Notes: generated from the sequence alone by a model not told the origin. DNA of 62,890 nucleotides from a virus (IMGVR_UViG_3300047498_000007:1-62890), one strand, 5' to 3'. Shown: positions 12,266 through 33,846, counted from the stretch's first letter. Numbers and translations: made by a program.

Positions 12266-12294
12266 GGGGTCGCATTAACCTGCGATCCCTTTTT
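12266..12294. terminator. bidirectional rho-independent terminator at a convergent junction
   Basis: GGGGTCGCA-ttaacc-TGCGATCCC followed by TTTTT on the plus strand. The stop codon of the minus-strand lipase gene lies in the loop. Confidence 0.65.
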
Positions 12295-12892
12295 CATATA
12301 ATAAAATATTATGCCAAGCCATAAGACCTTCATGCCAATCAGTAGGTGTTTCTTGAAGCGCAATTGGCTCCACAGCAGCTACAGCTAATTCTGTCCCTAT
12401 CACAAGCGGGACATCAGTTACAGGGTCCACGCCATTCTTATATGAGGATTTAGCGTATGGCGCTAAGAATTGGGCGAATTGTTGGCATCCTGGCTTGGGA
12501 GATCCGAAGGTTGTGATCTTGGCTGGAACACCTCCCGCAAGGATATATCTCCCCGCCGCCAACTGAGCGCGCGCTGCCCCAAGGCTATGGCCGACGAAAG
12601 ATGTACCTGCACTGAGATAGGGGGCAACTTTGGCAAAGAACTCATCTAAACCCTCATCAAATCCATCGTGAATTGTGCCAAATTGAGGGTGAGATTTTGG
12701 ATAACCTAGTTTAAAGACTTCAAAATCCTTCATCCAATCAGAGAATGTATAGGAACCGCGAAAGACTAAAACATTATTCTTAAGACCTGCACAGATTCCG
12801 TCCGGTGCTGTTCCATCATAATATTTGTCCCAACCCTGAAAAGATGAGTCATAGATGGTGGCAGCTAACCGGACAAGATCTGCGTCTTCCAT
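12275..12892 (-). CDS. class-3 lipase / alpha-beta hydrolase
   Basis: Nucleophile elbow FVGHSLGAARAQ (GxSxG). A downstream GVDPVTDVP resembles the Lipase_3 Asp block. It is the last gene of the late/lysis operon. Confidence 0.7.
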   Translation of the reverse strand: MEDADLVRLAATIYDSSFQGWDKYYDGTAPDGICAGLKNNVLVFRGSYTFSDWMKDFEVFKLGYPKSHPQFGTIHDGFDEGLDEFFAKVAPYLSAGTSFVGHSLGAARAQLAAGRYILAGGVPAKITTFGSPKPGCQQFAQFLAPYAKSSYKNGVDPVTDVPLVIGTELAVAAVEPIALQETPTDWHEGLMAWHNILLYEKGIAG

Positions 12893-12894
12893 AA

Positions 12895-13251
12895 TTAGGC
12901 AGCGGCAGGAGGCGTGACTGTTGGAGCAGGCGTTGGAGTAACTACTGGAGCCGGTGTAGGAGTCGCGGCAGCTGTAGCCGCAGCCTCTGCCATAGCAACC
13001 ATCGCAGGAATCTGTGTATCAATAAAGGTTTGCAACAACGTGGCTGTATCTTTTAAAGCTGCAGAAGTGCCCGTAGGAACCAAAGCTGCTACAGCAGCCT
13101 GAAATGCAACGCCTTGGGCCACTGCCGTCTCGACAGTGGGATTGGTTTTCACTGCCGTTAAGTAAGCATCAACAGGTGCTTGGAAGATTACAGACTCATC
13201 TTGCAAAAGAGTGCCAAAGAGGGTCGCTGCGAAAACTGATAGTTGTGACAT
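12895..13251 (-). CDS. Ala-rich protein with Pro/Thr C-terminal linker (118 aa)
   Basis: ORF with a C-terminal TPTPAPVVTPTPAPTVTPPAAA. Function unknown. Confidence 0.5.
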   Translation of the reverse strand: MSQLSVFAATLFGTLLQDESVIFQAPVDAYLTAVKTNPTVETAVAQGVAFQAAVAALVPTGTSAALKDTATLLQTFIDTQIPAMVAMAEAAATAAATPTPAPVVTPTPAPTVTPPAAA

Positions 13252-13263
13252 GTGATATCTCCG

Positions 13264-13509
13264 TTAAGTTTTTGAGTTTAGCCATTTGGACAAAAGGACG
13301 TGGCCGATCATGGCAAATAACATAACCACGGTTGTAAATATTGTTTGTAGACCCTGCTCGACAGCTTCAGGGGGGATTGCTTCAGCAGGATGAGCAGCAT
13401 GGTAGTAATACGTAAAGACAGTTGCGATCGCTCCACCCAACGTAGAGGCCGTCAAGCCTGTGGCAATAATGCCTCCTCTATTTTGTGGTTGAACATCTGT
13501 CATGGACAT
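13264..13509 (-). CDS. holin-like two-TM membrane protein (81 aa)
   Basis: Two hydrophobic helices (GGIIATGLTASTLGGAIATVFTYYY and TIFTTVVMLFAMIGHVLL). Located in the lysis cassette. Confidence 0.5.
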   Translation of the reverse strand: MSMTDVQPQNRGGIIATGLTASTLGGAIATVFTYYYHAAHPAEAIPPEAVEQGLQTIFTTVVMLFAMIGHVLLSKWLNSKT

Positions 13510-13549
13510 AAAATTACCAAAAATAGTTAATTATTTCAAGTGTAAATTG

Positions 13550-13936
13550 TTAAGTCGTCGGCCCCTTTAATTGCCTGTCAAGACAAACCTTTAACGAAGT
13601 ACGTTCTATTTCTCTAAGGGCATCAGGTTTTATTGTAAAGACAGTATCTTTTTGATCATTAAGGAATGTGGCAACTACTGGAATACCATCTTTTTGATCA
13701 TCAACATTTAGGCAAACATCATTGGGTGTTAATTCTTTCAGAACATCAGGATTGACTTTTGTTCCAAAGCAAACCTCACGTTTTGCGTGAGTGAAAGACA
13801 TACCCATAAGTCCGATTACAAAGGGACCCTTCTCTGAAGGAACTACCACTTTTGCGATAGCGCCTGTAATGTCACATTCTCCAGCATTGGCGACCATACT
13901 TGTCGCTATCAATGCAGCGGCTAGAAAATTCCTCAT
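13550..13936 (-). CDS. secreted protein (128 aa), lysis-cassette associated
   Basis: Signal peptide MRNFLAAALIATSMVANA|GE. I recognised no lipobox. Confidence 0.5.
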   Translation of the reverse strand: MRNFLAAALIATSMVANAGECDITGAIAKVVVPSEKGPFVIGLMGMSFTHAKREVCFGTKVNPDVLKELTPNDVCLNVDDQKDGIPVVATFLNDQKDTVFTIKPDALREIERTSLKVCLDRQLKGPTT

Positions 13937-14349
13937 GTGTTTGTCCTCCAGTTTTTTGTTTCAAAATGATCCAAATCCACCGGATGGTGCCACTCACCAC
14001 CCCACGTCATACCAAGAGATTCGCCAATGGTTCCTGCTTGGTGGTATCGGGGATCTGCGCCGCTTGAGACATAAGTTCCGTCGCTCTCAAATACTCCAAA
14101 ATCGAATGCCTGTGCTGCGGGATTTCCCGCGCTATCAACGCAATTGTGAGCGCTCTGACCACCTTTAAGCTCAGTGATAATTTTACCAGCTGCTGTTCTT
14201 CCTTGTGCATAGTCAACATCTTGTTCCTCGTTTGAACGATAAGTACAAATTAATTTTACAATGATTCCTTGATCTGCACATTGATCAATAAAATCTTGTG
14301 CTATTGGCTGAAGAGAGGCTGATAAATCTTTTATATCGCGTGAGGCCAT
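13933..14349 (-). CDS. endolysin, peptidase M15 (VanY / L-alanyl-D-glutamate peptidase-like)
   Basis: Zn ligand blocks QSAHN...AFDF and VDLDHFE. Confidence 0.8.
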   Translation of the reverse strand: MASRDIKDLSASLQPIAQDFIDQCADQGIIVKLICTYRSNEEQDVDYAQGRTAAGKIITELKGGQSAHNCVDSAGNPAAQAFDFGVFESDGTYVSSGADPRYHQAGTIGESLGMTWGGEWHHPVDLDHFETKNWRTNT

Positions 14350-14351
14350 CT

Positions 14352-14621
14352 TTATAAGTGCATCAGTTTAATAATGATTTCTCCCACGACGGCCATCGTG
14401 CCTCCGGCACCCCCGACGGCTGCGGCAGTCCATGCTTTATTTTGAGATGAAGCCCCACGATTCTCTGCTTGCTCAATCTGCACTGTTCCGAGACGACTTG
14501 TTAGGTGATCAACAGCAGCTGTATTTTCTTTAAGTGCAACTTTTAAGTCCTTCATATCATCCTCATAATTGTTCATTCTGTTCTCTATCACAGCAACTTT
14601 TTGTTCAATTGGAACTGACAT
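14352..14621 (-). CDS. tail-anchored membrane protein (89 aa), putative lysis accessory or holin
   Basis: N-terminal coiled coil and a C-terminal TM (AWTAAAVGGAGGTMAVVGEIIIKL). It sits immediately upstream of the endolysin. Confidence 0.45.
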   Translation of the reverse strand: MSVPIEQKVAVIENRMNNYEDDMKDLKVALKENTAAVDHLTSRLGTVQIEQAENRGASSQNKAWTAAAVGGAGGTMAVVGEIIIKLMHL

Positions 14622-14645: not shown

Positions 14646-17600
14646 CTAATGGGGGGTCCCATTAAACCAAAGTTTATCACCAGATGTCGTGGCTCCGGTT
14701 AAAGCACAAGTTGTCTGTGTAGAAGCACTCATAGCAAAGTTAACACCAGTTGTTAAATCACCACCAACGCAATTCCAGCCATTTGGTACTGTTGGAAGCG
14801 TGAGAGTTAATGTGCATGTGCTTGTTGTACCACTCGTCACCCCACCACTATAAATACCGCCATTCAGAGCACTAAATGAGCAGCCAGATACGGTTGGAAT
14901 AACTGTTGTGTCAATAACAGGAAGACCTCCAATGTTTCTTTTATAATGTGTGATCGCGGTATTAGCAGGATTTTCGAACGCTGTATTAAAGCCTTGGCGT
15001 TCTTCTCCACCATCAAAAATTACATAATCAACAGACGCACTACCAGTAGTGGAGAGAACATATTTTGATTGTTGGCTGCTAGGAGCGCCTGCGCCTCCAA
15101 AGTTGTGGTAATCCATACTAACGCCAGAAAATGATATGTCTGACCCAGTGCCGCCTAATAAAACTTGAGAATAGGCAGAGCTTCCTGGGTTGCAGTCATT
15201 TCCTTGCATCCACCCGCCAGTGATTTGAAGGTGTCCCCATCCTGATCCTACAGTTGCGACAGCACATTGAGTCGCCTGCCATTGAACGCCTGTAAGTTGA
15301 GTATTTGTCACACTATCAAATATAACCCCATATCCTCCGCTTTCGAATCTCCCACCAGTCATGTGGCTTGAATTCGAGCCAAAGCCAGAAGAAGAAGGGC
15401 CGTCATACCAGTTGGTGTTGTAATTATTAGTAAATACAGTATTTTCAAGATTAAAATCTGTTAGGCTACCATTGACTCCAATTCCGTTTTCACCAAACCA
15501 ACCATTCCTAATAAAACCAGTCCCACTAACATTTGGTGGAGAGGAAGTTATTGTTATTGTGCCTGTGGCTGATGAGCTTTGGCTAAGAATGTAAGTGCCT
15601 GCAGCTCCGCCAGGAGGGGCGGAATTAATAACAGAATTGGCTGCTATACCTGTGCCGGTGACAGTTCTGCCGACAGCAAGAAAGTCTGATGGGTTGCTCG
15701 GGTAATTAGCTAAGGCATTCGATGTGATAGCTGTAATCGTCATTGTATTGCCAGTTACAGAGCCCGTGGCAGTAATCGTTTTGCTCCAATCAAGTGGCGT
15801 GCCGAATCCTACTGGGCATTGAGTGACGCCAACATGATCGAGCGTTACCCAATCAGCATTCAGCCCAGCTTGAGCTGTGAATCCAAAACCTGCAGAAGAT
15901 TGACCCTGTGGGAGATAAGGAAAACTAGCGCATATTAATACAAAATCTTTAAACCTGGTTCCATAGGTGGTGTTTAAATTAATCCCCATGTTATTTGCAA
16001 CGGGAGAACCACTTGAATTATCTACGTCATCTGAAAATCCATTAAATGCCACATATAGGGGGGTAGCATCTTGATTGGGATAACCAGTTAATTGGTTGTA
16101 TCCCATACCTCCCTCATTGCCGACAAGAGCTGTATGGTTTGCCATAACTAAATTATGGATTAAGCAATTAGCAGGGAGTGAAACAATACCGCCACCCAAT
16201 TGTGATGCCTTGGAAGCAGATTGAATTGCGAATGTATCATCTCTAGCAGTTGCAGGATTATTTGGATTTGACGGATAGCCGCCCATAACAGCATTTTTGT
16301 TTGACGTGTTGGACACCATATTGGCTCCTAGTGCCGCACAATTTGTAGAGCTAGAACATGTAAATGTTCCACTACCATTTGTAAATGTAGCGCCATTGGC
16401 GACCACAGCGGCGACATATGTAGTTGGCCCTTGATCCGTGTCATATCCTACGGAGAAAACTTTTCCTACATCGCCGCCCCCGAATTGGGTAGCTACACCT
16501 GGTTGGAATGTGTAATTATTTACTGTAACGAGAGGAGAGTTTGCTATCGTGTTGACCCCATTTTGGAGGGGATCGCCGTTAAACTGTTGAGTAAATAATT
16601 GAGTATTACATGTAGCCCCAAAATCCAAAGGATCTAATGCTCTGTTGGGGTTTAAGACTCCCTGAATAGCCGATGTGAATGCTTCAGCTATATGGCCTTG
16701 GCCAGTCGAGTTGTAATGGAAGGTCGATCCAAGAATATCTGTGGAGAAATTAAAATATTTTTGTACGTTAGCAAATACAACAGATAATCCATCAGCAGCT
16801 AATTGATTAGCTTGCGTCATTTGGTCTGTATTAAACGCAGCAATTGCTGTTGGATAAGTAGTAGACGTGTAAGCCTGCCCACCCAATACAACTGTTGGAG
16901 AGCTTCCTGGTAAAGGCACTCCAGGAGGTGTTCCAATTCCTTCAATAATTACTGTATTACTTGAAGATGTTGAAGATGTAACAGCGATATTGACTGTATG
17001 AGCACCAGCAACAGAAACCGGAATTCTAATACCGCCAAGAGTGAAACTGCTTAATGTGGGAGAATAAGTAAATGCATTATTGCCTTGCGTTGCAACCGTT
17101 GTTGTCGGGCCGCTATCAAGTCGATAAGTGAATGTTCCACCATTGCTGCCGTTCATACGGAACCAGAGATAGATTGGACCACCATTGGTGGTTGTGCTTA
17201 AAGCTAAAGTGCTGCCGTTTGTTTGGGAAACAACGCCATAAGATCCTCCGTATCCAGAATCATTTGACCAAGAGCCAGTTTGTGTCCCGGCTTGTCCATA
17301 AACTTTATAAGCATTAGGAACAGCCATCCATGTCAAAGCGCCCATGCGACATGTGCTTGTGTCTTGAAGATGTTGTGTATAAAATCCGCCTCCATATCCA
17401 ACATCTTCAGAACTTGGTAGCCATGTAACAAAGTTGTTTCCTTGTAGAGTTGAGTTGCTATTAGGCACAATTTCAGTATTGACAACATCACAATCTAGGT
17501 GGCTGAAATCATTTAAAATGTAATAAGTTGGTCCCAATCCTAATCCTTTTGCTACTATTGCAGCGTAGCCATTTGTCAATGGCTGATATTGAGCATTATA

Positions 17601-19310
17601 ACTGTCTGCATCACCAAAGACAGTATATCCAGACCAAGAATTTGCAGCTAATCCCCGAGATTGAGATGGGAATGAACCATTCGCATTTTTGCCCTGTACA
17701 GCTTGTCCATCAATATCAATCACAAGATTAGATGGCTGCCCCTGGCGATAAATCGCAAAATCAGTTACAGAAGCATTGTTAGTCAGACTCGGCCCGAATT
17801 GTGCCTCTCCACCATTGAATTGTATGTTATTATTATTGGATGGTGTTCCGTTGAAATCCAAAGTGTATGGAGGAGTTGTCGCATTATTACTGCCTAGTGG
17901 TGCTGTACTTCCTTCAGAATAGTTAGATAGGAATTTTACGTTTGAAACATATAAACCACCACTATTGGTACTGCCATTAAAGCAGATATGAGCGTCTTGA
18001 CCAGCAGTAGTGTTACCCTGAAAGGCCCCTCCACCGTTGGCGTTTCCACGAAACCACCCACCAGTCATGTTGATTTGCGCCCAGAATGTATTGAGATCTA
18101 AACCACACCCAGAGTTACCATCAAATTGATTACCTTCCATATTGATGAGAGCGCCGGACTTAACAACAATACCCTCAAGATTAAATTCAAATCTATTAGA
18201 TAAGAATCGTGCCGCCCCTGACGCTCCAACAGCACCTTCTGCTGGCCCTACAACCATACCCCCGGCGTTTCCATAACTCCCAAATTCTCCGTTCGATACA
18301 AAATCATTCCCAAGTATTTGTTGATCACTTAGAGGGCCGTAGATCCCTGCCGTTGTATTAGCTGTGAAGTTATTGAATCTTGCTACAGCAAAAATATACC
18401 CAGAATTGCCACCCGTAGGTGCTCCGAACCCTACTTGTCCTTGAAGGAACGTCATGTACTGCACAACAATACCAGGACTATTGCCACCTCCAGCGCCGGA
18501 GGAGCCATTGGCTCCGATAAGAACAGGAACAGCTCCAAATCCTAGAGCTTGCAGAGGCCCAGGCCCAGTAACAAGTAAATCAGTTATCTGAAAACCTTCG
18601 AAGAATTGTTGGTTTATTCCACTTATATTTATACCAAAGTTTGGCGCAAAACCTCTAGGAGATATAACGTACAAAACTGGCGTTGTGCCGTCGCCATGGT
18701 AAGTAGAGTTAGGATTGAAACTTTCCCCTATTAATGATGAAGCCTCATGCAAAATTGTGCCATTTGCTTGGCTACCATATATTGTGCATTTATCTGGGAT
18801 TATTACATAACCGCCTGTTGCCACAGACGCTGTGGAGGCAGCGACAATACCAGCCGAGTCATCATGAGCTATAACTAAAGTGCTTCCTGTAGGGACTGCA
18901 GAGTTTAATGTAATTGTGCCACCAACACCGCTATTCACGCCAGTAACAGTAAATTGTGACGTATTTAAAATTGTGGCAGTACCACTATTATTAGTGGCTT
19001 CGTAGAAAACAAAAAAGTTACTATTATCTGTCGACGATGATCCTGTGAATGGAATTGTATAAGCGAATGTAGTGGTTGAACTATCGCCAGCATAAATATT
19101 GTACCCAGCACATAAGGCACCATATGCTGGGTCACGAGGATCATAAGCAGTTCCGCCAGCAATTTTGTTGTGAGCGGCTGCTGCAGCTAAAGCAGCCCAT
19201 TGATTACTTTGATTGATAATAAAGTTTCCACTCACTCCAGGAGGGGGGGTTTGCCCAGCAAAAACTGGGGAACAAATAAGACATAAAAGAAGTGTAATAA
19301 TCTTTCTCAT
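14646..19310 (-). CDS. giant fibre/beta-helix protein with N-terminal Sec signal peptide (about 1554 aa)
   Basis: MRKIITLLLCLICSPVFA|GQ. It is rich in Gly/Ser/Thr/Asn, with PbH1-like repeats (NRFEFNLEGIVV, GNQFDGNSG). The C-terminal 4-Cys domain is shared with the 898-aa protein. The ORF is open to 19322. Confidence 0.7.
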   Translation of the reverse strand: MRKIITLLLCLICSPVFAGQTPPPGVSGNFIINQSNQWAALAAAAAHNKIAGGTAYDPRDPAYGALCAGYNIYAGDSSTTTFAYTIPFTGSSSTDNSNFFVFYEATNNSGTATILNTSQFTVTGVNSGVGGTITLNSAVPTGSTLVIAHDDSAGIVAASTASVATGGYVIIPDKCTIYGSQANGTILHEASSLIGESFNPNSTYHGDGTTPVLYVISPRGFAPNFGINISGINQQFFEGFQITDLLVTGPGPLQALGFGAVPVLIGANGSSGAGGGNSPGIVVQYMTFLQGQVGFGAPTGGNSGYIFAVARFNNFTANTTAGIYGPLSDQQILGNDFVSNGEFGSYGNAGGMVVGPAEGAVGASGAARFLSNRFEFNLEGIVVKSGALINMEGNQFDGNSGCGLDLNTFWAQINMTGGWFRGNANGGGAFQGNTTAGQDAHICFNGSTNSGGLYVSNVKFLSNYSEGSTAPLGSNNATTPPYTLDFNGTPSNNNNIQFNGGEAQFGPSLTNNASVTDFAIYRQGQPSNLVIDIDGQAVQGKNANGSFPSQSRGLAANSWSGYTVFGDADSYNAQYQPLTNGYAAIVAKGLGLGPTYYILNDFSHLDCDVVNTEIVPNSNSTLQGNNFVTWLPSSEDVGYGGGFYTQHLQDTSTCRMGALTWMAVPNAYKVYGQAGTQTGSWSNDSGYGGSYGVVSQTNGSTLALSTTTNGGPIYLWFRMNGSNGGTFTYRLDSGPTTTVATQGNNAFTYSPTLSSFTLGGIRIPVSVAGAHTVNIAVTSSTSSSNTVIIEGIGTPPGVPLPGSSPTVVLGGQAYTSTTYPTAIAAFNTDQMTQANQLAADGLSVVFANVQKYFNFSTDILGSTFHYNSTGQGHIAEAFTSAIQGVLNPNRALDPLDFGATCNTQLFTQQFNGDPLQNGVNTIANSPLVTVNNYTFQPGVATQFGGGDVGKVFSVGYDTDQGPTTYVAAVVANGATFTNGSGTFTCSSSTNCAALGANMVSNTSNKNAVMGGYPSNPNNPATARDDTFAIQSASKASQLGGGIVSLPANCLIHNLVMANHTALVGNEGGMGYNQLTGYPNQDATPLYVAFNGFSDDVDNSSGSPVANNMGINLNTTYGTRFKDFVLICASFPYLPQGQSSAGFGFTAQAGLNADWVTLDHVGVTQCPVGFGTPLDWSKTITATGSVTGNTMTITAITSNALANYPSNPSDFLAVGRTVTGTGIAANSVINSAPPGGAAGTYILSQSSSATGTITITSSPPNVSGTGFIRNGWFGENGIGVNGSLTDFNLENTVFTNNYNTNWYDGPSSSGFGSNSSHMTGGRFESGGYGVIFDSVTNTQLTGVQWQATQCAVATVGSGWGHLQITGGWMQGNDCNPGSSAYSQVLLGGTGSDISFSGVSMDYHNFGGAGAPSSQQSKYVLSTTGSASVDYVIFDGGEERQGFNTAFENPANTAITHYKRNIGGLPVIDTTVIPTVSGCSFSALNGGIYSGGVTSGTTSTCTLTLTLPTVPNGWNCVGGDLTTGVNFAMSASTQTTCALTGATTSGDKLWFNGTPH

Positions 19311-19714
19311 ACGCTTAACCATCCTAAACTTGTATCTATTAAGGTAATACTTCCAAAATTGGTGTACACTTCGTTGACTCCTAAAACTGTTCTGTTCACG
19401 CCAATGTTGTCTGTCCCTGCCGTACCCTTCATATCAAATATAATGATAATTCCTAATGATCCAGTGCTCGCGGGAATGTTTGCCGTTTTCGCTCCAGCAG
19501 TTGCACTATTGAAAATCAGAATAGTATTTATGACAGAAGCTGTTCCTGAAGTTCCTGATGTTACATCTACTTCATGTATAATGCCGCTGCCGCCCCCTCC
19601 GCTGCTTAAATTCGCAATTTGTTGGGTTGTGAAAAATTCTTCAACAGCAGAAAGCCCACCTGTCTCTGATATTCCTATGACTTTTACAAGTTCATTGCCA
19701 ATTGGATTGGTCAT
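19307..19714 (-). CDS. small virion-associated protein with a conserved N-terminal module (135 aa)
   Basis: The N-terminus MTNPIGNELVKVIGISETGGLSAVEEFFTTQQIANLSS is paralogous to the N-terminus of the 38648..39181 product. Confidence 0.5.
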   Translation of the reverse strand: MTNPIGNELVKVIGISETGGLSAVEEFFTTQQIANLSSGGGGSGIIHEVDVTSGTSGTASVINTILIFNSATAGAKTANIPASTGSLGIIIIFDMKGTAGTDNIGVNRTVLGVNEVYTNFGSITLIDTSLGWLSV

Positions 19715-19790
19715 GGGAAACTTTCAAATTGATTAATAGTTTGCGCTCCGCGGAGGAGGGCCAGAAATATAACCAGCCTAAACATGGTCC

Positions 19791-22487
19791 TTACCACATC
19801 CTACAGTTAAACTTCACAACGTCTGCGCTAACCGTGGTTCCTGTTATAGTTGCTGTTGTTGTTGTGTCGGCTGTCTGTGTTTGAACATTTGCCGTCGTTG
19901 TGCTGTCGTAAGCATTACAGAGCCACCCATTGTTGGCGATAATGTTGGCCGTACCGAATGGAGTGATTGTCACGGCACAAGAACCCGTCGTACCGGAAGT
20001 ATATTTTCCTATATCACCGTTACCTGCTGGGGAGGTGGCCGTGCATCCAGATATTGTTGGGGCTGGCATTCCAACATTCCCCTGAAATACGCCGGTGATT
20101 GTTCCCAACATATCTAATGGAGAAGTTGTATTATTTGCTATGTTGTTGTTGGCAAAAAATGCCCCTGTATTGGTCACGCTGGTATTAACAGCAATACCAT
20201 ATTTTTGGGTTGACGCACCATCATCATAAAATGTGTTGTTGGTAACGGTCAGTTTTGTCGTATTGGAGCTGATGGCCAAACCACTTTTACGATAATCAGT
20301 TGTTCCAGAAATATTACCACAACTAAAGCCAATGTTGCCAGTAAAGACAATAGACTGAGCGGTGCCTGTTCCGGCAATTCCATAGCAAGCACTTCCGGCA
20401 CCAGCGACTTGATTTCCGGACACTATTACGTCGGTCATAAATGTGCTGGCGTTGCTTGTGATTAACTCAACCCCGAAACCTGTCGGGTTAACTATGTTGT
20501 TTCCTGAAACCACCGTCTTGGCGTTTCCAAGGGGTGCTGTATTAATATAGTCTAATATAATTCCGCCATTTGTGCCGGAAACATAATTTCCAGTAATAGT
20601 GCTTTGTGTTCCAGATGGATTTGGCAGAGTGCCGTCATTTTGTGTGATGCCGTACCAATTAATATTATTATCATTGAAACCATAAATAAAATTACCAGTA
20701 ATTGTCATGCCAGTTGTGCCAGAGTTACCTATACCAGCAGAACCGTTCACGCCATTATTCGCCGCATTAGAATTACCGCCTTCAAAAACTATGTTATTAC
20801 TTATTACCGTAGAGGCTAAAATAGCTGTAGATACTTCGCTCTCTATAAAAGCTCCGAAGTGATTAGGGTTTACAATGATGTTTCCAGTAATGATATAAGC
20901 TTCGCCTTCCATGCCGTAGGCACCTTGGCCAATACCATTAGATCCTTGGGCATTACCGCCAAAACGGCCAGCGTTTTCTATGATATTATTAGTAACTTGA
21001 CCATTAATTGCTGCATCAGTGGCTATTCCTGTCGCCATAGTGTCATGCACATAAAGACTATCAACAACGGAATGATAATTGCAAAACATCCCTATCCCCT
21101 TAGCACTAACATGGAAGGTTGCGTCTGTTGCCGATAAATCATCAATTTCAAAATTTGTTAAACGATTATTGCTCTGCAACAAAGCATTTGTTGGTGAACA
21201 TGTAACATTATTCGATTGATTAATCCCATACAATACAGGAGTAAGCTGATCGGTTGCCGCAATCCACTTAATGATAGACTTCCCTGCGCCATATCCGGTG
21301 ATGCTTACATTATTATCTACAATTACAGACGCTGTCGTAATACACATTCCTAGAGGCAATACCAATAAACCACCACCCGCGTTCTTCGCAGCTGTATCGG
21401 CTGCTTGCAAATTGGTTGTATCATCTGTACCAAAAACCACCGTGGCCTTACCTGTAATAGAACTCGTCGCCGTCGTGTTGAGTGTGGCGTTCCCACCTGC
21501 CACACTTAGAATAGTAGTATTGATAACTGGATATGCGCTCACAGAAAGACTAGAACCAGTATTCGTCGCTGCGTTGCTCATAGAGAAACCAGCCAAACCA
21601 GAACCCGTAGTGTAAACACCAGTAACGTAAGTTCCTTGAGGGATATTAGTGCCAACAAGCATCATGCCATTTTTTAGTCCAGACGTAGATCCAGCACTGG
21701 CAAATTTAGAACCATTGGTTGTCACCATTGTGCTTGATGTATAGGCAGTACCAGCCCAGACACTAATAATCTTCCCAACATCACCAGCTACGAATGTATA
21801 AGAAGCACTTGATATAACAGCATTCGAAGCTGTTGTAGTAACGTCCTGTAGGGTTTTACCGTTACAGAGCACACCATAATTTGTCACATATAATGGTGGT
21901 TGTCCGATTATACCTGAGAGTGCCGTCTGTGAAGCTGTTGTATTAGAGAGGCCCCCAAATGATCCGGCTATATTAGCTTGAATAGATCCTACGGGACTTC
22001 CTGGACTTCCACCGCCTCCGCTATATTGTGGGATGTTTAGAGTACCAGCTGAGAAAGTTGCAGCGCCACTAGAACCTGTCGTTGTTAAAGAGAATGGAGC
22101 AGACCAAGTATTATCACCACGGAAAAAAGTAGTAGAGCTTGCAGATGTTCCTGAATTGACCTGCGTGGTAGCAATATTACCAGATATATCAGTAAAGGCA
22201 GGTTGAGCTTGTGAAAATACACCAAGCGTTGAAAGACTAGTAAGGAATTGGTGAGAAACTCCCGTTGTTGATTCTACACCTCCAATGACTGAGGCACTTG
22301 ATGGCTGTAACGTAACAGATCCTGTGCCAGTGATAGGAGATGGAGAAACAATAATACCACCATTGCCAGATGTAATACTTACAGATCCTCCACCACCTCC
22401 TGGTGCTTGAGTATTGCTGACAATTTCTGCGTTGACTACACTAGAAGCCAATAAGAATAAAAGAACGAGAGAGAGAATCTTTTTCAT
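19791..22487 (-). CDS. right-handed beta-helix (pectate-lyase-like) tailspike/depolymerase-like protein with signal peptide (898 aa)
   Basis: MKKILSLVLLFLLASSVVNA|EI. There are many PbH1-type repeats (TGNIIVN, SNNIVFEG, TGNFIYG, TGNYVSG, SGNNIVN, SGNQVAG, TGNIGFS). Confidence 0.65.
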   Translation of the reverse strand: MKKILSLVLLFLLASSVVNAEIVSNTQAPGGGGGSVSITSGNGGIIVSPSPITGTGSVTLQPSSASVIGGVESTTGVSHQFLTSLSTLGVFSQAQPAFTDISGNIATTQVNSGTSASSTTFFRGDNTWSAPFSLTTTGSSGAATFSAGTLNIPQYSGGGGSPGSPVGSIQANIAGSFGGLSNTTASQTALSGIIGQPPLYVTNYGVLCNGKTLQDVTTTASNAVISSASYTFVAGDVGKIISVWAGTAYTSSTMVTTNGSKFASAGSTSGLKNGMMLVGTNIPQGTYVTGVYTTGSGLAGFSMSNAATNTGSSLSVSAYPVINTTILSVAGGNATLNTTATSSITGKATVVFGTDDTTNLQAADTAAKNAGGGLLVLPLGMCITTASVIVDNNVSITGYGAGKSIIKWIAATDQLTPVLYGINQSNNVTCSPTNALLQSNNRLTNFEIDDLSATDATFHVSAKGIGMFCNYHSVVDSLYVHDTMATGIATDAAINGQVTNNIIENAGRFGGNAQGSNGIGQGAYGMEGEAYIITGNIIVNPNHFGAFIESEVSTAILASTVISNNIVFEGGNSNAANNGVNGSAGIGNSGTTGMTITGNFIYGFNDNNINWYGITQNDGTLPNPSGTQSTITGNYVSGTNGGIILDYINTAPLGNAKTVVSGNNIVNPTGFGVELITSNASTFMTDVIVSGNQVAGAGSACYGIAGTGTAQSIVFTGNIGFSCGNISGTTDYRKSGLAISSNTTKLTVTNNTFYDDGASTQKYGIAVNTSVTNTGAFFANNNIANNTTSPLDMLGTITGVFQGNVGMPAPTISGCTATSPAGNGDIGKYTSGTTGSCAVTITPFGTANIIANNGWLCNAYDSTTTANVQTQTADTTTTATITGTTVSADVVKFNCRMW

Positions 22488-22943
22488 TTAGAGAATTTCT
22501 CCTGTGAAAAATGCTGTAGCCGAACCAGTAGAAGTAAAGCATCCTGTTGTGCTGAAGACTGCTGTAATGCCAGTGCTCATTTTCAATGGGAATGGAGTGA
22601 ATGCAATTCCAATAGTGCCTGGAGCTGAAGGAATATAATAACAAGCTACAGGAGTCACAGCGCCATTTGCAGGAGCTGTCGCAGAGTTAAATACAAGAAC
22701 ATATCCTGCGGTACTAGTTGCTGTTACAGATAATCCAAACAATGTTCCGGCTGATGCCTTAAACACATGAGAGGCTTCTAAAGCTGCAGAATTCACTGGC
22801 GGAGATGATGGCTGATAACAAACTGAATTCTTAGCGTTGCACCCGATCGTTCCCATGTACCCAGGCAACGTAGTGGTTGCTGTAGATTGAGCAAAAACCG
22901 TTGACGGAATCAACAACAGTAAAAGTGCAAGAATTTTTTTCAT
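22488..22943 (-). CDS. secreted small protein, 4 Cys (151 aa)
   Basis: MKKILALLLLLIPSTVFA|QS. AGGAGA SD. It shares the motif [IV]L[IV]FNSATA with the 135-aa protein. Confidence 0.55.
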   Translation of the reverse strand: MKKILALLLLLIPSTVFAQSTATTTLPGYMGTIGCNAKNSVCYQPSSPPVNSAALEASHVFKASAGTLFGLSVTATSTAGYVLVFNSATAPANGAVTPVACYYIPSAPGTIGIAFTPFPLKMSTGITAVFSTTGCFTSTGSATAFFTGEIL

Positions 22944-23024
22944 TTAAGTCTCCTAATTAGCTAATCCGTATACTGGTTCAAAGTTATCAAGCCAAAAGCC
23001 TTCTGCCATTTTAATCTCCCATTG

Positions 23025-24539
23025 TTAATGACAACATATCGCGTAAGCAGTAATTGTTCCACAAGTCACCCCGGTGGTACACGTACATTCATAACTTGCT
23101 GTTGATGTAGGCGCTGAAGTACTGAATGTTGCCGCAGAAGCGGCTCCGCTACTTGTTTTACAGCCACCGCCTGTAAGCGTATAGCCACCAGAACACGCAG
23201 CCGTTACTGAACCTGTAGTAGCAGTTGTTACCTGAGTGCATGAAGTAAAGCCAGATGTTGATGGAGTCGCCCACGTACCATCTCCACGCCAATATGTTGA
23301 ACTACTGGCAGACGTTCCACTATTTAAATTTGTAACCGGAAGATTGCCAGTGACTTGAGACCCGCTTGCAAGGTTGACCGTTGACCAAGAAGGATTGGCA
23401 GATGCGCCAGATGTTTGGAAAAAGTTACCAGAAGATCCAGGAGGCAATTCAACCCATGAAAGTCCTGCTCGATATATAATCGCGCCTTGTGTGGCCCCTA
23501 AAACGCTATCTAAATAAGCTGATAAAGTAGTACCGCCTGGAGTTGCTGTACTTCCACTTGTGTTGGCTAACATAGAGCCATTAGCAATCGTCCCAAGAGA
23601 AACTGTTACATTGCCGCTGGTGCCACCGCCGATTAATCCTGTGCCTGCTGTGACGCCTGTAATAGTTCCAACGCCACCACCGGCTGCTACCCAGATGGGA
23701 TTGGCTGCTGCTCCTTGAGTCTCAAGAAAATATCCATTTGTACCTGGAGGTAATGCACTCCATAAAGCGCCTCCGCGATACAGGATGCTGCCTTGAGTAT
23801 TTCCTATTGCACTATCTAAAAGTGCCGAAACGCCAACACCTGTAGGAGTGGCAGTAATGCCTGATATGTTACCAAAAACTTGGTTATTTGCTATCTGAGG
23901 AAGGGAATTAACAATAGCCTGAACATTAAGAGCAAGAGACCAATCGCCATTTGCAAGATCAGTAGTCCACACTCCAGAAGTATTTGAATTAGTGCATAAA
24001 TAGATATTACCAGTATTATTACCATTCGCACCGTCAACAACCATATCTCCATAGTTATATAAAACACTTGTTATCCAATCTCCGCGCAATTGACCTGTTC
24101 GAGCTGAAATCTGTTGCGATTGCATCTCGAGTATATCAATAGCTTGCTCTACTACTTGTGGGCTGAAGTCGCCTTGCCCAGAAATACTCACAAGTTGCTG
24201 TAATGGAATAATTCTTTGGATCGTAAGAGTAGTGCCAGCAGCCATTGGTGGGCCGGCCAAAGGATAAGTTATAAAACCACCAATGCCCCAGAGAGATCCT
24301 GGTAATATTGGATTAAGAGCTACTGAATATTGAGAGGGCGATAGAGTTGTCTGAAGACCATTAGCATCAGTATAAATTACTTGAAAATCAGCAGGTTGAT
24401 CTCCAACAAAATTAAATGTAAAATTTGTAGAGAGACCGTTCCCACCGACAGTAATTTGATTCTGAATTGTCGATATAGTGGCGTTCGCAGGAGACGCTAA
24501 AAGAAACAATGTCAAGAAAAGAGTTATTAATCTTTTCAC
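23025..24539 (-). CDS. tail-fibre-like protein with signal peptide and Cys-rich C-terminus (504 aa)
   Basis: GTG start with AGAGG 6 nt upstream. [20 protein letters not shown]|TI is followed by [28 protein letters not shown], which resembles a podovirus fibre N-domain. There are 8 Cys in the last ~75 aa. Confidence 0.6.
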
Positions 24540-24619: not shown

Positions 24620-27103
24620 TTATTGCGCCCCAGATAAGAGACCTGTTGCTTTTCCGCCTTGAGATTTGAGATATACGCCTGGGACACCAGTTGGCACTCC
24701 ACCTCCAGGTGTATATCCTTGCATTGTGCGACCTTGTTCTTTCTGGAGATTTCTGTTCGTTCTTTCCCACCATCCTGGTTTTGCCGCTTCATATAAATGA
24801 TACCAAAGCATATAATCGAGTGTTCCCTTAAGATAAACCAAGTTAGCAAAAGGAATGTGGTTGACGCCAAAATGAGCGAGTTCCGACCAATTAAATTTTC
24901 CTTGCTTTGATTGATTAAACATTTGAACTAACTTATCAGCATCAGATACAACCGGACCTGCAAGAGAAGTAATCCCTCCTGCCATTCTATTAACTTCGCC
25001 AAATAATAAATCTCCCATAATACCCATGGCACCACTTTGTTGAGCAGATTCAAGAAGTGTTTTTGGTTGACGTGGATCTGGAGCTGGACGGCCAGATGCA
25101 AGATTACTAACTAATAACCTCATATAACCGGCAGGAATTCCGAGGGCAATTATCTTACCAATATTCCAAGCTGCTTCACCTTTAGAAAGACTCATATAAA
25201 CTTCACGTTCAAGGATTTGGTTCATGGCAGCGACCGGCCACATCTTAAACTGAGTTATGAATCGCAGAGCAGCATTAGGTATAGTTCCTTTTTGTGTCCC
25301 CTGTAATAAAGTGGCACGTTCACGTACACCAGGGGTTACAACACCATGCTTTGCTGCATCGGAATAATATGAAAGAAGTTTATCAGACATTCCTTGTTTG
25401 AAGTCAGCAACAGACTTAGCCGTTTCTTCAGGAGTTGCATCTTGTTTAATATCATCCCTTTCACGCAGCATTGATTCTACTTCTGCAGAGTCAAGACTTT
25501 CTGCAGCAGCTGAAGGTGTCAAATAAGACCTGCCATTGTATTGGGGTAGGTCTTTTGTGCCTTGCATTAATTTCCATTCATCTTCTCCAATGCGATATTT
25601 CGAAAGCATTTGCGTCAAATGAGGATCTAAATCCTTCCAATCTTTATCGATGTTACGGCCAAGATTATGAGCCAACATATCTCTAATTCCAGCTTTGGTG
25701 CGATCGTAGACAAGATGAATACCAGTGGCATCCATAAATCTTCCGGCCCATGAACTTATATGCCCAGGAATAGAATCATCACCTATTTTACCATGAACAT
25801 GTCTCAGTCCACCATCTGCATACGCTCCAAGATCAGCCATCAAGTTTCTATGTTCCGCATCGCCCATGCCGGAGGCAAGAGATTTGACCATATTCCCAAT
25901 AGACTCAAATCTATTGATACCATGATGTGCAAGTTCTGAAGTTACTGTAGGCCATATGGAAGCCAAATGGGTGACACCGACGCCACCAAGGGTAGACATG
26001 CTTTCAACTTGCATAGTTCCAGAAACAAATTTCTCTAACCCCATATTCGCAGGAATATTTAATGTACCGTCTAAGTCACGCATTTCATTGACAACGCTAC
26101 GCTTTCCACTCTGAAATTTTTTCACACCATCAACATCACTCTTATATGTTTCCTCAACTCGACGCAAAAGCATGTTCATATTAGCGCCTGGATTATTCCC
26201 AAGTTTTTCCATCAATGCTAATGACCGAGCACCACGATCAATTGAATTTGTTATGGAAGCATGAAGTGTAGGAGATGTTCCAAAATCTTGCATATGTTCA
26301 TGCCATGCCTGACCATCTTTCCATTGGATAGCGCGATGAGCAGAAGCCTTTTGACTTACATTAGTAGTATTAGCGAAGTCAGGGTGAACATAACTAGATT
26401 CTGCTGTACCTATTTTTGTATAAACTCCAGTGAGAAATGAATTGAATAGATCTTTACCAAAAGCTTTTTGAGCTTGCTGCATAGTTTGTGTGCCTATAGG
26501 TGTGACACCTTGGAAAGTTTTATCATTCATGCGTGGTCTATCTTTAGCCCACCAAGCTTCGAAAGCTTCATCTGGAGTTTTGCCATCTCCAGCGGCTTGT
26601 CTCATGCGCGTTGAATCCCATTGGGTGGTTGTGACATAATTTCTGGCATCACCAATTCTGGCACCAGCATTATTCATCATGTCACGAACATTATCCAGAG
26701 CTTTGGAATATATTTTTGCTATTTCAGCAGCTGGACCTTTACCAGCATCTTTGCCATTACTTAAGTTCCACCAAGCGATAGAGACATCTTTATCCATCAA
26801 ACCATTCTCAGCTACTTTTTTATAACCACCTTTGAATAGTTCATTATTAAGAACGGCAAGCCAGCCATCTCGTCTACCATGCCAGTTGCTCTCGACACTA
26901 TCACGCAATAATTTATTGGAACCACGGAGAATAGAATGCAACGTCTCAAGAGCATTCTTAATGCCACCATTCTTTGCCACTTGATCCATAATACCGTCAC
27001 GCTTCATAGCATCACGTAAAGAGTCTAACTTCTTGCTCCTCGCTTCAATAGCGTTTTGCTCCGCTTGTTTTAATGCACCACGTTCGGTGTTACATACTGT
27101 CAT
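24620..27103 (-). CDS. large internal virion / ejection protein (827 aa; the ORF is open to 27124)
   Basis: ATG 27103 forms a TAATG overlap with the upstream stop. Size and position after the SLT protein match podovirus gp15/gp16-type proteins. Confidence 0.5.
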   Translation of the reverse strand: MTVCNTERGALKQAEQNAIEARSKKLDSLRDAMKRDGIMDQVAKNGGIKNALETLHSILRGSNKLLRDSVESNWHGRRDGWLAVLNNELFKGGYKKVAENGLMDKDVSIAWWNLSNGKDAGKGPAAEIAKIYSKALDNVRDMMNNAGARIGDARNYVTTTQWDSTRMRQAAGDGKTPDEAFEAWWAKDRPRMNDKTFQGVTPIGTQTMQQAQKAFGKDLFNSFLTGVYTKIGTAESSYVHPDFANTTNVSQKASAHRAIQWKDGQAWHEHMQDFGTSPTLHASITNSIDRGARSLALMEKLGNNPGANMNMLLRRVEETYKSDVDGVKKFQSGKRSVVNEMRDLDGTLNIPANMGLEKFVSGTMQVESMSTLGGVGVTHLASIWPTVTSELAHHGINRFESIGNMVKSLASGMGDAEHRNLMADLGAYADGGLRHVHGKIGDDSIPGHISSWAGRFMDATGIHLVYDRTKAGIRDMLAHNLGRNIDKDWKDLDPHLTQMLSKYRIGEDEWKLMQGTKDLPQYNGRSYLTPSAAAESLDSAEVESMLRERDDIKQDATPEETAKSVADFKQGMSDKLLSYYSDAAKHGVVTPGVRERATLLQGTQKGTIPNAALRFITQFKMWPVAAMNQILEREVYMSLSKGEAAWNIGKIIALGIPAGYMRLLVSNLASGRPAPDPRQPKTLLESAQQSGAMGIMGDLLFGEVNRMAGGITSLAGPVVSDADKLVQMFNQSKQGKFNWSELAHFGVNHIPFANLVYLKGTLDYMLWYHLYEAAKPGWWERTNRNLQKEQGRTMQGYTPGGGVPTGVPGVYLKSQGGKATGLLSGAQ

Positions 27104-32300: not shown

Positions 32301-32891
32301 TTAATAAAGACCCCCTGTGCCTGGGCCTACAGTGCCATTGCCTGTTCCTGGATCAAGATTACCATCAATAGGACTATTCTTTTGGAGATAATTTCCATAA
32401 GCACCAGCAGCACCAGAAACACCCCCAAGGATTGATCCTGCAGCACCTATATCGCCAGCTATTGCCGCATTATTACCTTGGAATTTATCCAATTGAGATT
32501 GCGCTGTATAGCTTGCTGCTTGTGTTTGATACCCATAAGCTGTTTTTGCTGCGTTGGAACGCACAGTAAGAGCATCTAACTCTCCCAATTCTTCTGCGCT
32601 CGATCGTACATCAACAGCACTCCCGGAGTTAACATCAATGTTACCTGCTGCTTGGTTTGCTTTAATGGCTCCCACTGTAGCTCTAGTTTTCTGCTCTGAT
32701 ACAGCTGCTTGCTCTTCGCCAGCGTTAGCGGCTCTTGTAGCTGTTTGTTGAGCAATAGTTGCATTATTTGCAGCAATTTCTGAATTATAATTAGCTGATT
32801 TTTTTGCAGCTTGTCCTTGTTCATATTCTCCATAGCCAGTTATAGCCGCTCCAGCTACTGCTATAACCGCTGATGCAATAGCCCACGGCAT
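32301..32891 (-). CDS. Ala/Gly-rich internal virion protein with N-terminal TM (196 aa)
   Basis: MPWAIASAVIAVAGAAITGYG followed by an Ala/Gln-rich helical region. Position is like gp14. Confidence 0.45.
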   Translation of the reverse strand: MPWAIASAVIAVAGAAITGYGEYEQGQAAKKSANYNSEIAANNATIAQQTATRAANAGEEQAAVSEQKTRATVGAIKANQAAGNIDVNSGSAVDVRSSAEELGELDALTVRSNAAKTAYGYQTQAASYTAQSQLDKFQGNNAAIAGDIGAAGSILGGVSGAAGAYGNYLQKNSPIDGNLDPGTGNGTVGPGTGGLY

Positions 32892-33271
32892 TACGCTAAC
32901 TCCTTGAGTCTATTCTCTTCATGAATTAATGGTTTCCCATTCGTAAGAGAAAAATAATCCGACATATTATGTATGCAATATACTTCTGTATTATCTTCCA
33001 AAGATTGAAATCTGTGCTTAGATTTAGCAGGAATCTTTATTGCGTCTGGTGCTTTAAAATCACCAATAAATTTTTCACCCTCCCACACTCTCACGGAACC
33101 TTTGGCTACCAATGAAGTATGATAATATTCATGAGAATGTTGGGCTACCATCGTGCCCTTCCGCTTCATGATCATTCCTTTGATAAATATTCCATCAGAA
33201 GTGGTCCATTCTATGTCATCAGGTAAATGAACCAGACAGTCTCCACGTTCGATTCCCATTTCGTCAATCAT
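32891..33271 (-). CDS. cupin-domain protein (126 aa; the ORF is open to 33304)
   Basis: HSHEYYHTSLVAKGSVRV...PAKSKHRFQSLEDNTEVYCIH fits the cupin two-motif pattern. ATG 33271 forms an ATGA overlap with the upstream stop. Confidence 0.5.
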   Translation of the reverse strand: MIDEMGIERGDCLVHLPDDIEWTTSDGIFIKGMIMKRKGTMVAQHSHEYYHTSLVAKGSVRVWEGEKFIGDFKAPDAIKIPAKSKHRFQSLEDNTEVYCIHNMSDYFSLTNGKPLIHEENRLKELA

Positions 33272-33846
33272 TGATATCTCCCAAATTTTGCTGTACGAAT
33301 ACAAATAATGACAGTAATTCTATCATCTTTACTTTCATTCTCTACCCAATGAATTTTACGATTATCAAATAACCATATCTCACCTGGTTTCGGCGCAAGT
33401 CTTTCTACCCCATCGTGGTCACAACAAAAATAAGCGCCTTCAGAACTTTTTAATGTCAAGTAAAATTTATCATAATATTCAACATGCCATCCGCCATCTA
33501 CATGGGGGGATATACCCATACCTGGGGGAACGCGAGTAATGAGAACACCACCGAGCATTTCGCCTTCAACTTTAGCCATTAAGTCAAAAACAATTTTATG
33601 AAGAGAAGGCAATAATCTCCAAGCAGGATACCAAATTGGAACATGCTCATTACTCATGAGCTGAAAATCGTTATTACATTTTTCAAGTGAATTATATCGA
33701 ACCCAAATATCTGACATCCTATCGTGAGGAGTGCCCTTATAGACTTTGCGCTGATTATTAACATCCCAGAGATTGGAATTTAATTCTATCTCCGCTAAAA
33801 GACCAGACACATCAATGCCGTCACTAATTTTCTGAAAGTTTTTCAT
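33268..33846 (-). CDS. aspartyl/asparaginyl beta-hydroxylase-like (cupin-fold oxygenase) protein
   Basis: PHVDGGWHVEYYDKFYLTL...GEIWLFDNRKIHWVENESKDDRITVI resembles the Asp_Arg_Hydrox pattern H-x-D...W-x-F-D...H-x-V-x-N. Confidence 0.55.
   Translation of the reverse strand: MKNFQKISDGIDVSGLLAEIELNSNLWDVNNQRKVYKGTPHDRMSDIWVRYNSLEKCNNDFQLMSNEHVPIWYPAWRLLPSLHKIVFDLMAKVEGEMLGGVLITRVPPGMGISPHVDGGWHVEYYDKFYLTLKSSEGAYFCCDHDGVERLAPKPGEIWLFDNRKIHWVENESKDDRITVIICIRTAKFGRYQ

Follow-up and report, generated by a model that had tools for sequence, protein, structure and literature searches.

The contig IMGVR_UViG_3300047498_000007 is the complete 62,890-bp sequence of an uncultured short-tailed phage (referred to below, at its full length, as the window). 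It carries five consecutive minus-strand genes (14646..24539) that encode, in this order, proteins of 504, 151, 898, 135 and 1554 amino acids (aa); they lie 3' of the internal virion protein genes and are followed by the holin and endolysin genes. The assembly of tailed phages is entirely cytoplasmic and their fibres are not expected to carry export signals. Four of the five genes (504, 151, 898 and 1554 aa) open with a signal peptide of n-h-c type ending in A/V-x-A, and these four proteins are very probably exported by the Sec pathway and cut at these A-x-A sites. The 504-aa protein, located at the position of a gp17 tail fibre, is the most informative of them, as its predicted cleavage falls exactly where its signal-less relatives begin. 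As far as can be judged from sequence comparison, the signal-bearing fibre trait is genuine and conserved; it is widespread among uncultured phages and also occurs, without having been remarked upon, in two isolates. The reading that we prefer, if only tentatively, is that Sec export, cleavage and oxidative folding in the periplasm would be followed by docking of the 504-aa fibre once the holin has breached the inner membrane. With somewhat more reserve, it can be proposed that widespread environmental tailed phages (podoviruses of about 60 kb related to the window phage, and others with the same families, among them regions with myovirus-type baseplate genes) would complete their virions outside the cytoplasm by means of Sec and Dsb.

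Leaders and the junction of the 504-aa fibre

The n-regions of the four leaders read MK(K/R) or MRK and their h-regions, of 11–14 residues, are followed by Pro or Ser. Residues -3 to -1 are ANA in the 504-aa protein, VFA in the 151-aa protein, VNA in the 898-aa protein and VFA in the 1554-aa protein. All four thus combine a charged n-region, an h-region within the range of 7–15 residues and small residues at -3 and -1, as scored with a home-made n/h/c heuristic and inspection by eye, on which all the signal-peptide calls given here rest. This heuristic flags eight of the 87 open reading frames (ORFs) of the window, four of which are these consecutive genes, and none of the 15 capsid-cluster proteins. 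Since the h-regions are short and followed by P/S and A/V-x-A, the leaders are read as cleavable signal peptides and not as transmembrane anchors. Lipoprotein signals were ruled out, as the LLLC and LIC of the 1554-aa leader lack a small residue at -1 and the other three leaders lack Cys. A twin-arginine (Tat) signal was ruled out too, the RR motif being missing from all four.

It could be argued that such leaders are artefacts, due to mis-called starts, to chance hydrophobic stretches or to a contig of non-phage origin; one start is a GTG and the Shine-Dalgarno (SD) sequence of the largest gene is weak. However, the starts are either preceded by an SD or coupled to an upstream stop. The GTG of the 504-aa gene has an AGAGG 7 nucleotides ahead of it and the 151-aa ATG follows an AGGAGA. 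The 898-aa gene begins immediately after the TAA of the 151-aa gene and has GGAGA upstream of its ATG, and the start of the 1554-aa gene shares an ATGA with the stop (TGA) of the 135-aa gene. In the 504-aa gene, no alternative in-frame ATG, GTG or TTG is present at the cleavage junction or shortly behind it. Furthermore, the leaders are conserved in homologues that come from independent samples and number in the dozens to hundreds, and the contig encodes terminase, portal, capsid, nozzle, internal and lysis proteins. The coupled or SD-preceded starts and the conserved leaders rule out a start-codon artefact, and an artefact of any of these kinds is extremely improbable. The preliminary description of this block, made from the window alone, had quoted the four N-termini and reported a clear SD at three of the four starts; the N-termini are read here exactly as quoted, at the same minus-strand coordinates, and the starts are made credible by their SD sequences or stop coupling and by the leaders of the homologues.

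The 504-aa gene (23025..24539, minus strand, GTG start) follows the internal virion protein genes. Its product comprises a signal peptide (residues 1–20; 24480..24539) with predicted cleavage ANA|TISTIQ, a tail-docking N-domain (residues 21–145; 24105..24479) and a Cys-rich distal tip (the last ~75 aa, with 8 Cys; 23028..23252). Positions 2–118 of the phrog_1640 "tail protein" profile match residues 21–145 (E 3.6e-8), in agreement with the fibre-type N-domain that had been suspected. Using tblastn, this protein matches Dpo31 of the Cobetia phage Carin1, Bbp9 of BPP-1 and the fibres of the Skadi phages. Dpo31, a validated virion depolymerase, and Bbp9 both start at residue 21/22 of the window protein.

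The 504-aa protein has 1825 homologues, of which 120 were listed for a comparison of N-termini and 104 were well aligned. Most of these 104 start with M|T(I/V)S(T/S). In 19–20 of them, a signal peptide with an A/V/S-x-A/S site directly abuts the same T(I/V)S(T/S); A/V/S at -3 and A/S at -1 are found in all 19 signal-bearing members, while the leaders are otherwise divergent. In the docking-domain tree, the signal-bearing forms are distributed in at least six clades, which implies about ten parsimony changes, and their leaders belong to different sequence types. In the alignment, 24 invariant docking-domain residues are identical whether or not a member carries a signal peptide. That signal-less fibres might have a hidden signal peptide further upstream was considered and ruled out in the loci L007 and L035, where nothing can precede the annotated start because in-frame stops lie 1–2 codons upstream. 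Leaders of independent origin that end at the natural N-terminus of the family are hard to explain unless they are removed there. As signal peptidase acts on the periplasmic side, removal at this junction would imply a periplasmic-side step.

A scan of IMG/VR with the mature domain recovered 67 loci, most of them signal-less. Five of these loci (L048, L049, L051, L056 and L103, on contigs of 41–64 kb) carry, just upstream of position 10001, a first fibre with a longer leader, e.g., MKKAARLLLAFIGLIVLGEIADLAWLGYVRA|TVTS. Here a charged amphipathic stretch separates the hydrophobic core from a (V/A)RA|T site; the junction is the same and the leader is less canonical than a Sec signal. These five longer charged leaders could be signal anchors and count in favour of the idea that the hydrophobic N-termini stay uncleaved, as membrane anchors or as docking or assembly helices, or are simply ignored during ordinary cytoplasmic folding and assembly. 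Against this, h-regions of 11–14 residues followed by helix breakers are too short to span a membrane, the -3/-1 rule holds in 19/19 signal-bearing fibre homologues, leaders of different families end at the same residue, which makes sense only if they are removed, and conserved Cys pairs track the presence of a leader (see below). Retention of the N-termini is therefore very unlikely, and the uncleaved anchor, one of three options put forward initially, is disfavoured by the short h-regions, by the -3/-1 rule and by the coincidence of the junction with the signal-less N-terminus.

Sister phages of 47–63 kb were compared with the window (loci L005, L007, L034, L035 and L038, and the P0128 phage). 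All six carry a gene of the 504-aa type 3' of the internal virion protein genes. In the P0128 phage (47.7 kb), no fibre gene other than the signal-bearing one was seen in the gp17 slot; the start of this signal-bearing gene overlaps the stop of the gene upstream. The fibre modules that were read (window phage, L005, L034, L038 and P0128 phage) yielded no signal-less copy of the 504-aa type. As this protein is an orthologue of virion fibres with an intact docking domain, and as the module holds no signal-less copy, it would have to reach the tail after a passage through the periplasm; on balance, the 504-aa fibre probably ends up on virions.

The other proteins of the block and their relatives

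The 151-aa protein (22488..22943, minus strand) consists of a signal peptide (residues 1–18, VFA|QS), a Cys-containing linker and a jelly-roll head (residues ~48–150; 22494-22802, minus strand). Its AlphaFold2 model is an all-beta sandwich with a predicted local distance difference test (pLDDT) value >90 for residues 50–150. Its fold matches to C1q/TNF heads are too weak for an assignment to that family (best Foldseek E 0.01–0.1, TM-score ~0.3), and searches of Pfam and of PDB sequences found nothing. Representative relatives of the jelly-roll domain number 2171, most of them forming the C-terminal part of a longer protein, and a signal peptide is present in about 132 of the 151 representatives sampled. 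Cys101 and Cys135 of the jelly-roll occur as a pair, 146/151 sequences having either both or neither; they are kept in 127/133 signal-bearing members versus 11/18 signal-less ones (p=1e-4). The family is common in alphaproteobacterial prophage-like regions.

The 898-aa tailspike-like protein (19791..22487, minus strand) starts with a signal peptide (residues 1–20; 22428-22487, minus strand) with cleavage at VNA|EI. It continues with a Gly-rich fibre region (residues ~21–202) of low model confidence and without family match, then with a beta-helix and a C-terminal Cys domain (19794-21881, minus strand). In the AlphaFold2 model, residues 203–898, mostly with pLDDT >70, form a right-handed beta-helix. 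Foldseek matches it to tailspike depolymerases and AlgE4 (E 3e-9 to 1e-6 overall), the tailspike matches K64-1 S2-4, phi297 gp61, HK620, Sf6 and Pam1 having E-values of 3e-9 to 3e-7; mannuronan C5-epimerases are matched at the profile level. PbH1 repeats had been reported in the block on the basis of the sequence. Pfam detects neither PbH1 nor Beta_helix in the window proteins; PF13229 is carried by homologues, and the model of the 898-aa protein resembles phage tailspikes. All ten close homologues possess a signal peptide when read by eye, including P0143, missed by the heuristic, whose N-terminus is MFKKLMCSTALCFLFSDGAFA|QA.

The 135-aa protein (19307-19714, minus strand) has no signal peptide and its gene is coupled to the 1554-aa gene by the ATGA overlap. 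Its homologues (136–161 aa, 35–56% identity) are likewise all signal-less and each is encoded directly before large signal-bearing genes (L005 14074-14559; L034 14302-14712; L035 12214-12639 and 16594-17004; L038 13913-14335). They share the motif GNELV..V.G....G.PSG..E..TT.QIA.L.GGGG, and no family or phage match was obtained for the 135-aa protein. It might be a virion-side adaptor or an export or assembly helper. A motif seen by eye, LP..G.E..P..Q.G.TK, which would link this protein to fibre N-termini, was not relied on because of an hhalign probability of 2% (E 0.02).

The giant Cys-rich protein of 1554 aa (14646..19310, minus strand; 1558 aa if started at the upstream ATG, 19322) is encoded by the last gene before the lysis cassette. 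Its signal peptide (residues 1–18; 19257-19310, minus strand) would be cut at VFA|GQ. No Pfam, PHROG or PDB sequence match was found for it. Its relatives have 1500–2500 aa and 13–41 Cys, eight of which are invariant across a 22-sequence alignment of ~45% identity. A signal peptide is present in 41 of 44 homologues; of the three exceptions, one has a truncated start, P0371 has no signal peptide and P0382 appears to lack one because of an assembly frameshift. In the latter (L032 9876-10001, on a 1.03-Mb contig), the leader MKKFLYLVLAAFVAVSPALA is found in another frame just upstream.

A C-terminal domain of ~85 aa with the pattern SGC...C.VT...NGW.C...TGT.VSGD is common to the two largest proteins (14649-14900 and 19794-20050, minus strand) and recurs on the signal-bearing 742-aa protein of L005 and 676-aa protein of L035. 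This is an unusual case, as the module shared by several fibre proteins is their C-terminus instead of their N-terminus.

The clusters of Cys reported earlier are all found: the 504-aa protein has 8 in its final ~75 aa, the 151-aa protein has 4, and the two largest proteins share the Cys C-domain. The Cys content of the mature signal-bearing window proteins is 1.35%, compared with 0.60% for the remaining proteins of the virion module (p=2.5e-4), a pattern that fits an oxidising compartment. The preliminary description had also proposed aligning homologues and modelling the mature domains. These analyses support it, since the hydrophobic N-terminus is conserved in the 1554-, 898- and 151-aa families and in part of the 504-aa family, and the mature part of the 898-aa protein is a beta-helix matching phage tailspikes. 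Two other identities were tried for the four proteins and rejected. Trimeric autotransporter adhesins were ruled out by the lack of any Pfam anchor match and by C-termini that are small Cys-containing beta domains. Type IX secretion system (T9SS) cargo was ruled out by the lack of any Pfam sorting-domain match and by close relatives that belong to proteobacterial-type phages and genomes.

The modules of the sister phages vary in composition. That of L005 encodes signal-bearing proteins of 481, 153, 517 and 742 aa and a signal-less one of 161 aa; an HNH-type homing endonuclease gene (L005 11924-12523), absent from the window, is inserted between the 153-aa and 517-aa genes. L034 has signal-bearing proteins of 496, 585 (Peptidase_S74), 292, 298, 475 and 1215 aa (glycoside hydrolase family 5, GH5) with a signal-less one of 136 aa, and L038 signal-bearing proteins of 590, 80, 132, 227, 217 and 759 aa with a signal-less one of 140 aa. 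In these three loci and in the window phage, every fibre-like gene that was read in the module has a signal peptide, except that of the 135-aa type. This is not an all-or-none rule per genome, since L007 and L035 pair a signal-less first fibre (71% identical to that of the window in L035) with signal-bearing downstream proteins (one of ~594 aa, called as a 604-aa ORF, in L007).

Around the fibres of the 67 IMG/VR loci, signal peptides are found in 45/458 downstream ORFs versus 13/374 upstream ones, and in about 17 loci the fibre is followed downstream by a gene for a signal-bearing protein of 350 aa or more. Some signal-bearing relatives carry fibre-type domains, namely the Peptidase_S74 fibre chaperone domain or, in others, PHROG tail-fibre C-termini. 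The same families are also found downstream of myovirus-type (E217-like) baseplate genes, on contigs of 1.0 and 5.0 Mb with 56–58% GC; one of these regions also holds an ordinary signal-less fibre and its chaperone.

Two cultured podophages, reached via a signal-bearing family found in the loci of relatives, carry an analogous gene. Burkholderia phage BcepC6B gp19, annotated as "tail fiber protein", starts with MKKLIAILLAVPALALG|ATLAPIQ, and Xanthomonas phage PBR31 orf035, annotated as "putative structural protein", starts with MKKLIALFSLFCTSAFG|ATLNPIQ. In both phages, the gene lies between a signal-less fibre or tailspike and the holin, and the C-terminal part of the product matches the distal half of a PHROG tail-fibre family. 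Each phage has a single such gene, whereas the window block has four. BcepC6B gp19 shows no detectable homology to the giant family in an hhalign comparison, which covered this family only. The paper on PBR31 is silent on orf035 and its signal peptide, and no discussion of gp19 was found in the literature examined. Both genes offer cultured handles for work on the trait. Otherwise, the five-gene block has no megablast match and no near-identical or related cultured phage was found; tblastn searches of INPHARED with the 1554-, 151- and 135-aa proteins returned nothing, and the 898-aa protein had only one weak match among cultured phages, in a Klebsiella phage.

The rest of the window includes genes for terminase, portal, major capsid protein, helicase, primase, RtcB and lysis. 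With portals of Pseudomonas, Xanthomonas, Caulobacter and BPP-1-like podophages, that of the window shares ~33% identity; among the capsid relatives, one has been binned as Sterolibacterium sp. The upstream virion module (24620..37459, minus strand; phrog_684, phrog_376 and SLT matches) encodes a nozzle-type tail protein of 1055 aa together with three internal virion proteins (834, 822 and 910 aa), of which the 910-aa one carries an SLT domain; all four are Cys-poor and devoid of signal peptide. In sister phages, giant internal virion proteins carry toxin-like domains, RelA_SpoT (L034 4797-9896) or Zeta_toxin (L035 5574-9902; L038 5220-7520), which suggests that effector domains could be injected with the DNA. 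No toxin-like domain was detected in the 834-, 822- and 910-aa proteins of the window.

The lysis region (12275..14621, minus strand) lies directly downstream of the 1554-aa gene. It encodes an XhlA-like membrane protein that is a holin candidate (14352-14621), an M15 endolysin (13933-14349), a signal-bearing 4-Cys protein of 128 aa (13550-13936), a membrane protein of 81 aa (13264-13509), a protein of 118 aa and a class-3 lipase (12275-12892; Pfam Lipase_3, E 6e-14), all the listed positions being on the minus strand. The 128-aa protein, whose start overlaps the end of the endolysin gene, has its own signal peptide (MRNFLAAALIATSMVANA|GE) and no family match at all. The lipase ends the region, and a 204-aa Lipase_3 protein occupies the same place in L005. 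As no clear spanin pair was seen in the window, this lipase could be an outer-membrane-disrupting lysis factor. Elsewhere, the gene of an RtcB-type RNA ligase (4599-5816, minus strand) adjoins the only tRNA gene of the window, tRNA-Pro with anticodon TGG (5833-5910, minus strand); the pair may be a tRNA-repair counter-defence module. A 1102-aa protein encoded among early or replication genes (50471-53779, minus strand) contains no cysteine and has no PHROG or Pfam match.

Proposed export followed by docking, or export alone

The route that we infer for these proteins would run as follows. Late in infection, the set of receptor-binding proteins and depolymerases would cross the inner membrane. 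Signal peptidase would cut it at the A-x-A sites, and the proteins would fold, trimerise and form disulfides in the periplasm, while capsids and tails are assembled in the cytoplasm without them. The holin, encoded immediately downstream, would then breach the inner membrane, so that the two compartments would mix inside an intact outer membrane, and the 504-aa gp17-type fibre would dock on the tail via its conserved N-domain. Thr21, the first residue of this domain, would be made N-terminal by signal peptidase, as it is in the signal-less orthologues after removal of Met. The jelly-roll head, the beta-helix spike and the giant protein would be either branches of the fibre apparatus or released enzymes degrading matrix or receptors; they might join in the periplasm or through the signal-less 135-aa protein. 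The gain would be the oxidative folding of the Cys-rich distal domains. For P22 tailspikes and for T4 and T7 fibres, in vitro complementation shows that fibre addition is a spontaneous last step. Maturation of receptor-binding proteins outside the cytoplasm, the second of the initial options, thus appears as the best reading for the 504-aa fibre, the other three proteins lying between readings.

Several observations weigh against docking after export. To our knowledge, no tailed phage has been shown to add its fibres after lysis in vivo. The 151-, 898- and 1554-aa proteins have no recognisable tail-docking domain, and members of the first-fibre family with and without a signal peptide are only weakly distinguished by their Cys counts. 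Signal-bearing proteins coexist with ordinary signal-less fibres in L007, L033, L035, BcepC6B and PBR31. Related signal-bearing proteins are also encoded at non-fibre positions, i.e., following the capsid gene (L008, L010) or in the terminase-portal interval (L011); like this coexistence, such positions fit accessory exported proteins. Furthermore, some relatives encode six or seven signal-bearing proteins, several of them <230 aa, plus a GH5 cellulase, which looks more like an enzyme arsenal than a fibre set, and BcepC6B gp19 matches only the distal half of its tail-fibre family. Concerning two of these positions, the L010 gene (9629-10309), in a prophage of Sphingobium olei DSM 18999, is a signal-bearing jelly-roll gene located right after the capsid gene. 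The alphaproteobacterial element L011 (7753-11313) carries three consecutive signal-bearing genes in the terminase-portal gap, encoding a beta-helix protein of 734 aa and proteins of 131 and 336 aa.

The first of the initial options was that of exported products that never belong to a virion. At least the 151-, 898- and 1554-aa proteins would be secreted or periplasmic accessory factors expressed with the late genes, and virions would adsorb through other proteins. Such factors could be depolymerases that strip or degrade the capsule, exopolysaccharide or O-antigen in or around the infected cell, easing egress and, by destroying or masking the receptor, keeping progeny and superinfecting phages off the dying cell. 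This possibility draws on the moron-like location of homologous or analogous signal-bearing proteins in other phages, on their co-occurrence with ordinary fibres and on the partial correspondence of gp19, as well as on the enzyme content (AlgE-related beta-helix of epimerases and lyases; GH5 cellulase in L034) and on the proximity of the lysis cassette. It also draws on published phage-encoded T9SS cargo (PMC7468147, PMC6949934) and on the signal peptides found on ~5% of prophage carbohydrate-active enzymes (CAZymes) (PMC13507307). However, it leaves the 504-aa fibre unexplained, as its docking domain is as conserved as that of signal-less orthologues and its signal peptide is placed so as to regenerate their exact N-terminus, and as no signal-less fibre copy was found in the modules of the window phage, L005, L034, L038 and the P0128 phage. 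Proteins released by lysis need no signal peptide merely to exit, and Peptidase_S74 together with a fibre-repeat architecture is typical of virion fibres.

Free exported factors of this kind are a serious option for the three other proteins, though one that we would give about one chance in three, and that these three are bound to virions is no more probable. The 151-, 898- and 1554-aa proteins may be either branches of the fibre apparatus or free exported depolymerases or receptor-destroying factors; scattered positions, coexistence with ordinary fibres and enzyme domains favour the free-factor reading.

If fibres do mature in the periplasm, the completion of virions would hang on host secretion, oxidative folding and holin timing. 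Host SecA, signal peptidase and Dsb would then be host factors for the infectivity of tailed phages, acting at an unrecognised assembly step. Disulfide-stabilised receptor-binding proteins would become possible, and fibre-less particles would be a normal intracellular intermediate. If the proteins are instead free exported enzymes, phages would, on a large scale, remodel the envelope or the matrix of the cell that they infect from the inside. These genes take up about 16% of the window genome. In either case, annotation pipelines that call every such gene "tail fiber" overlook a change of compartment, and signal peptides matter for host-range prediction and for the expression of engineered fibres.

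Comparison with known systems

Small exported lipoproteins that exclude phages or block receptors, such as T5 Llp and phi80/N15 Cor, are expressed early or from a prophage. Like the factors considered above for the window, they are phage-encoded, go to the envelope and prevent the capture of phages by receptors. They are small lipoproteins, whereas the window proteins are large fibre or spike proteins without lipobox, encoded by a late operon.

In a full-text search of the literature, neither tail fibres bearing Sec signal peptides nor receptor-binding proteins maturing in the periplasm were found described, an absence that is not proof. The arrangement had been presented initially as not described. 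This stands for tail fibres and has to be tempered in general, as T9SS cargo enzymes have been reported in phages and two cultured phages have an analogous gene.

The phage proteins known to use Sec are lysis proteins, i.e., signal-peptide endolysins (Lys44 of fOg44), signal-arrest-release (SAR) endolysins and spanins (PMC6116005). They are late, Sec-routed and wait in the envelope until the holin fires, with the same timing logic as that proposed for the window proteins. They are lysis effectors, whereas the window proteins are fibre- or tailspike-like and reach 1554 aa.

The nearest published idea is that of phage-encoded T9SS cargo. "Cryophage" encodes an endoglucanase with a T9SS C-terminal domain, with GH39 and PA14, noted as a "unique occurrence" (PMC7468147), and T9SS-domain proteins are found near crAss-BACON ORFs (PMC6949934). 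As in the window set, the cargo of these Bacteroidota phages consists of variable carbohydrate-active proteins that are encoded in the structural region, bear host secretion signals and are read as secreted. The T9SS cargo differs by its C-terminal sorting domain, its restriction to the FCB (Fibrobacteres, Chlorobi, Bacteroidetes) group and its lack of a tail-docking domain; the window proteins have only an N-terminal Sec signal and one of them is orthologous to a virion fibre. A survey of prophage CAZymes from which tail fibres had been explicitly left out reported signal peptides on ~5% of them (PMC13507307).

Exported enzymes of tailspike type are also encoded by cells, an example being WceF from Pantoea (PMC7949094). 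WceF and the AlgE C5-epimerases from Azotobacter are right-handed beta-helix proteins that act on polysaccharides and carry an export signal, and AlgE4 is among the best matches of the 898-aa protein, by sequence as well as by fold. Their genes are cellular and without phage context, whereas the 898-aa protein has a Gly-rich fibre segment and belongs to a phage fibre module.

Finally, the closest counterparts of the 504-aa protein are the Bbp9/Dpo31-type fibres encoded at the gp17 position in BPP-1, Carin1 and the Pelagibacter Skadi phages, with which it shares the N-domain, the genome position and the mature N-terminus T-I-S-T. The known members of this type start with Met at the domain itself, whereas the window protein and about 20 metagenomic relatives add to it a Sec signal peptide of 20–27 residues.

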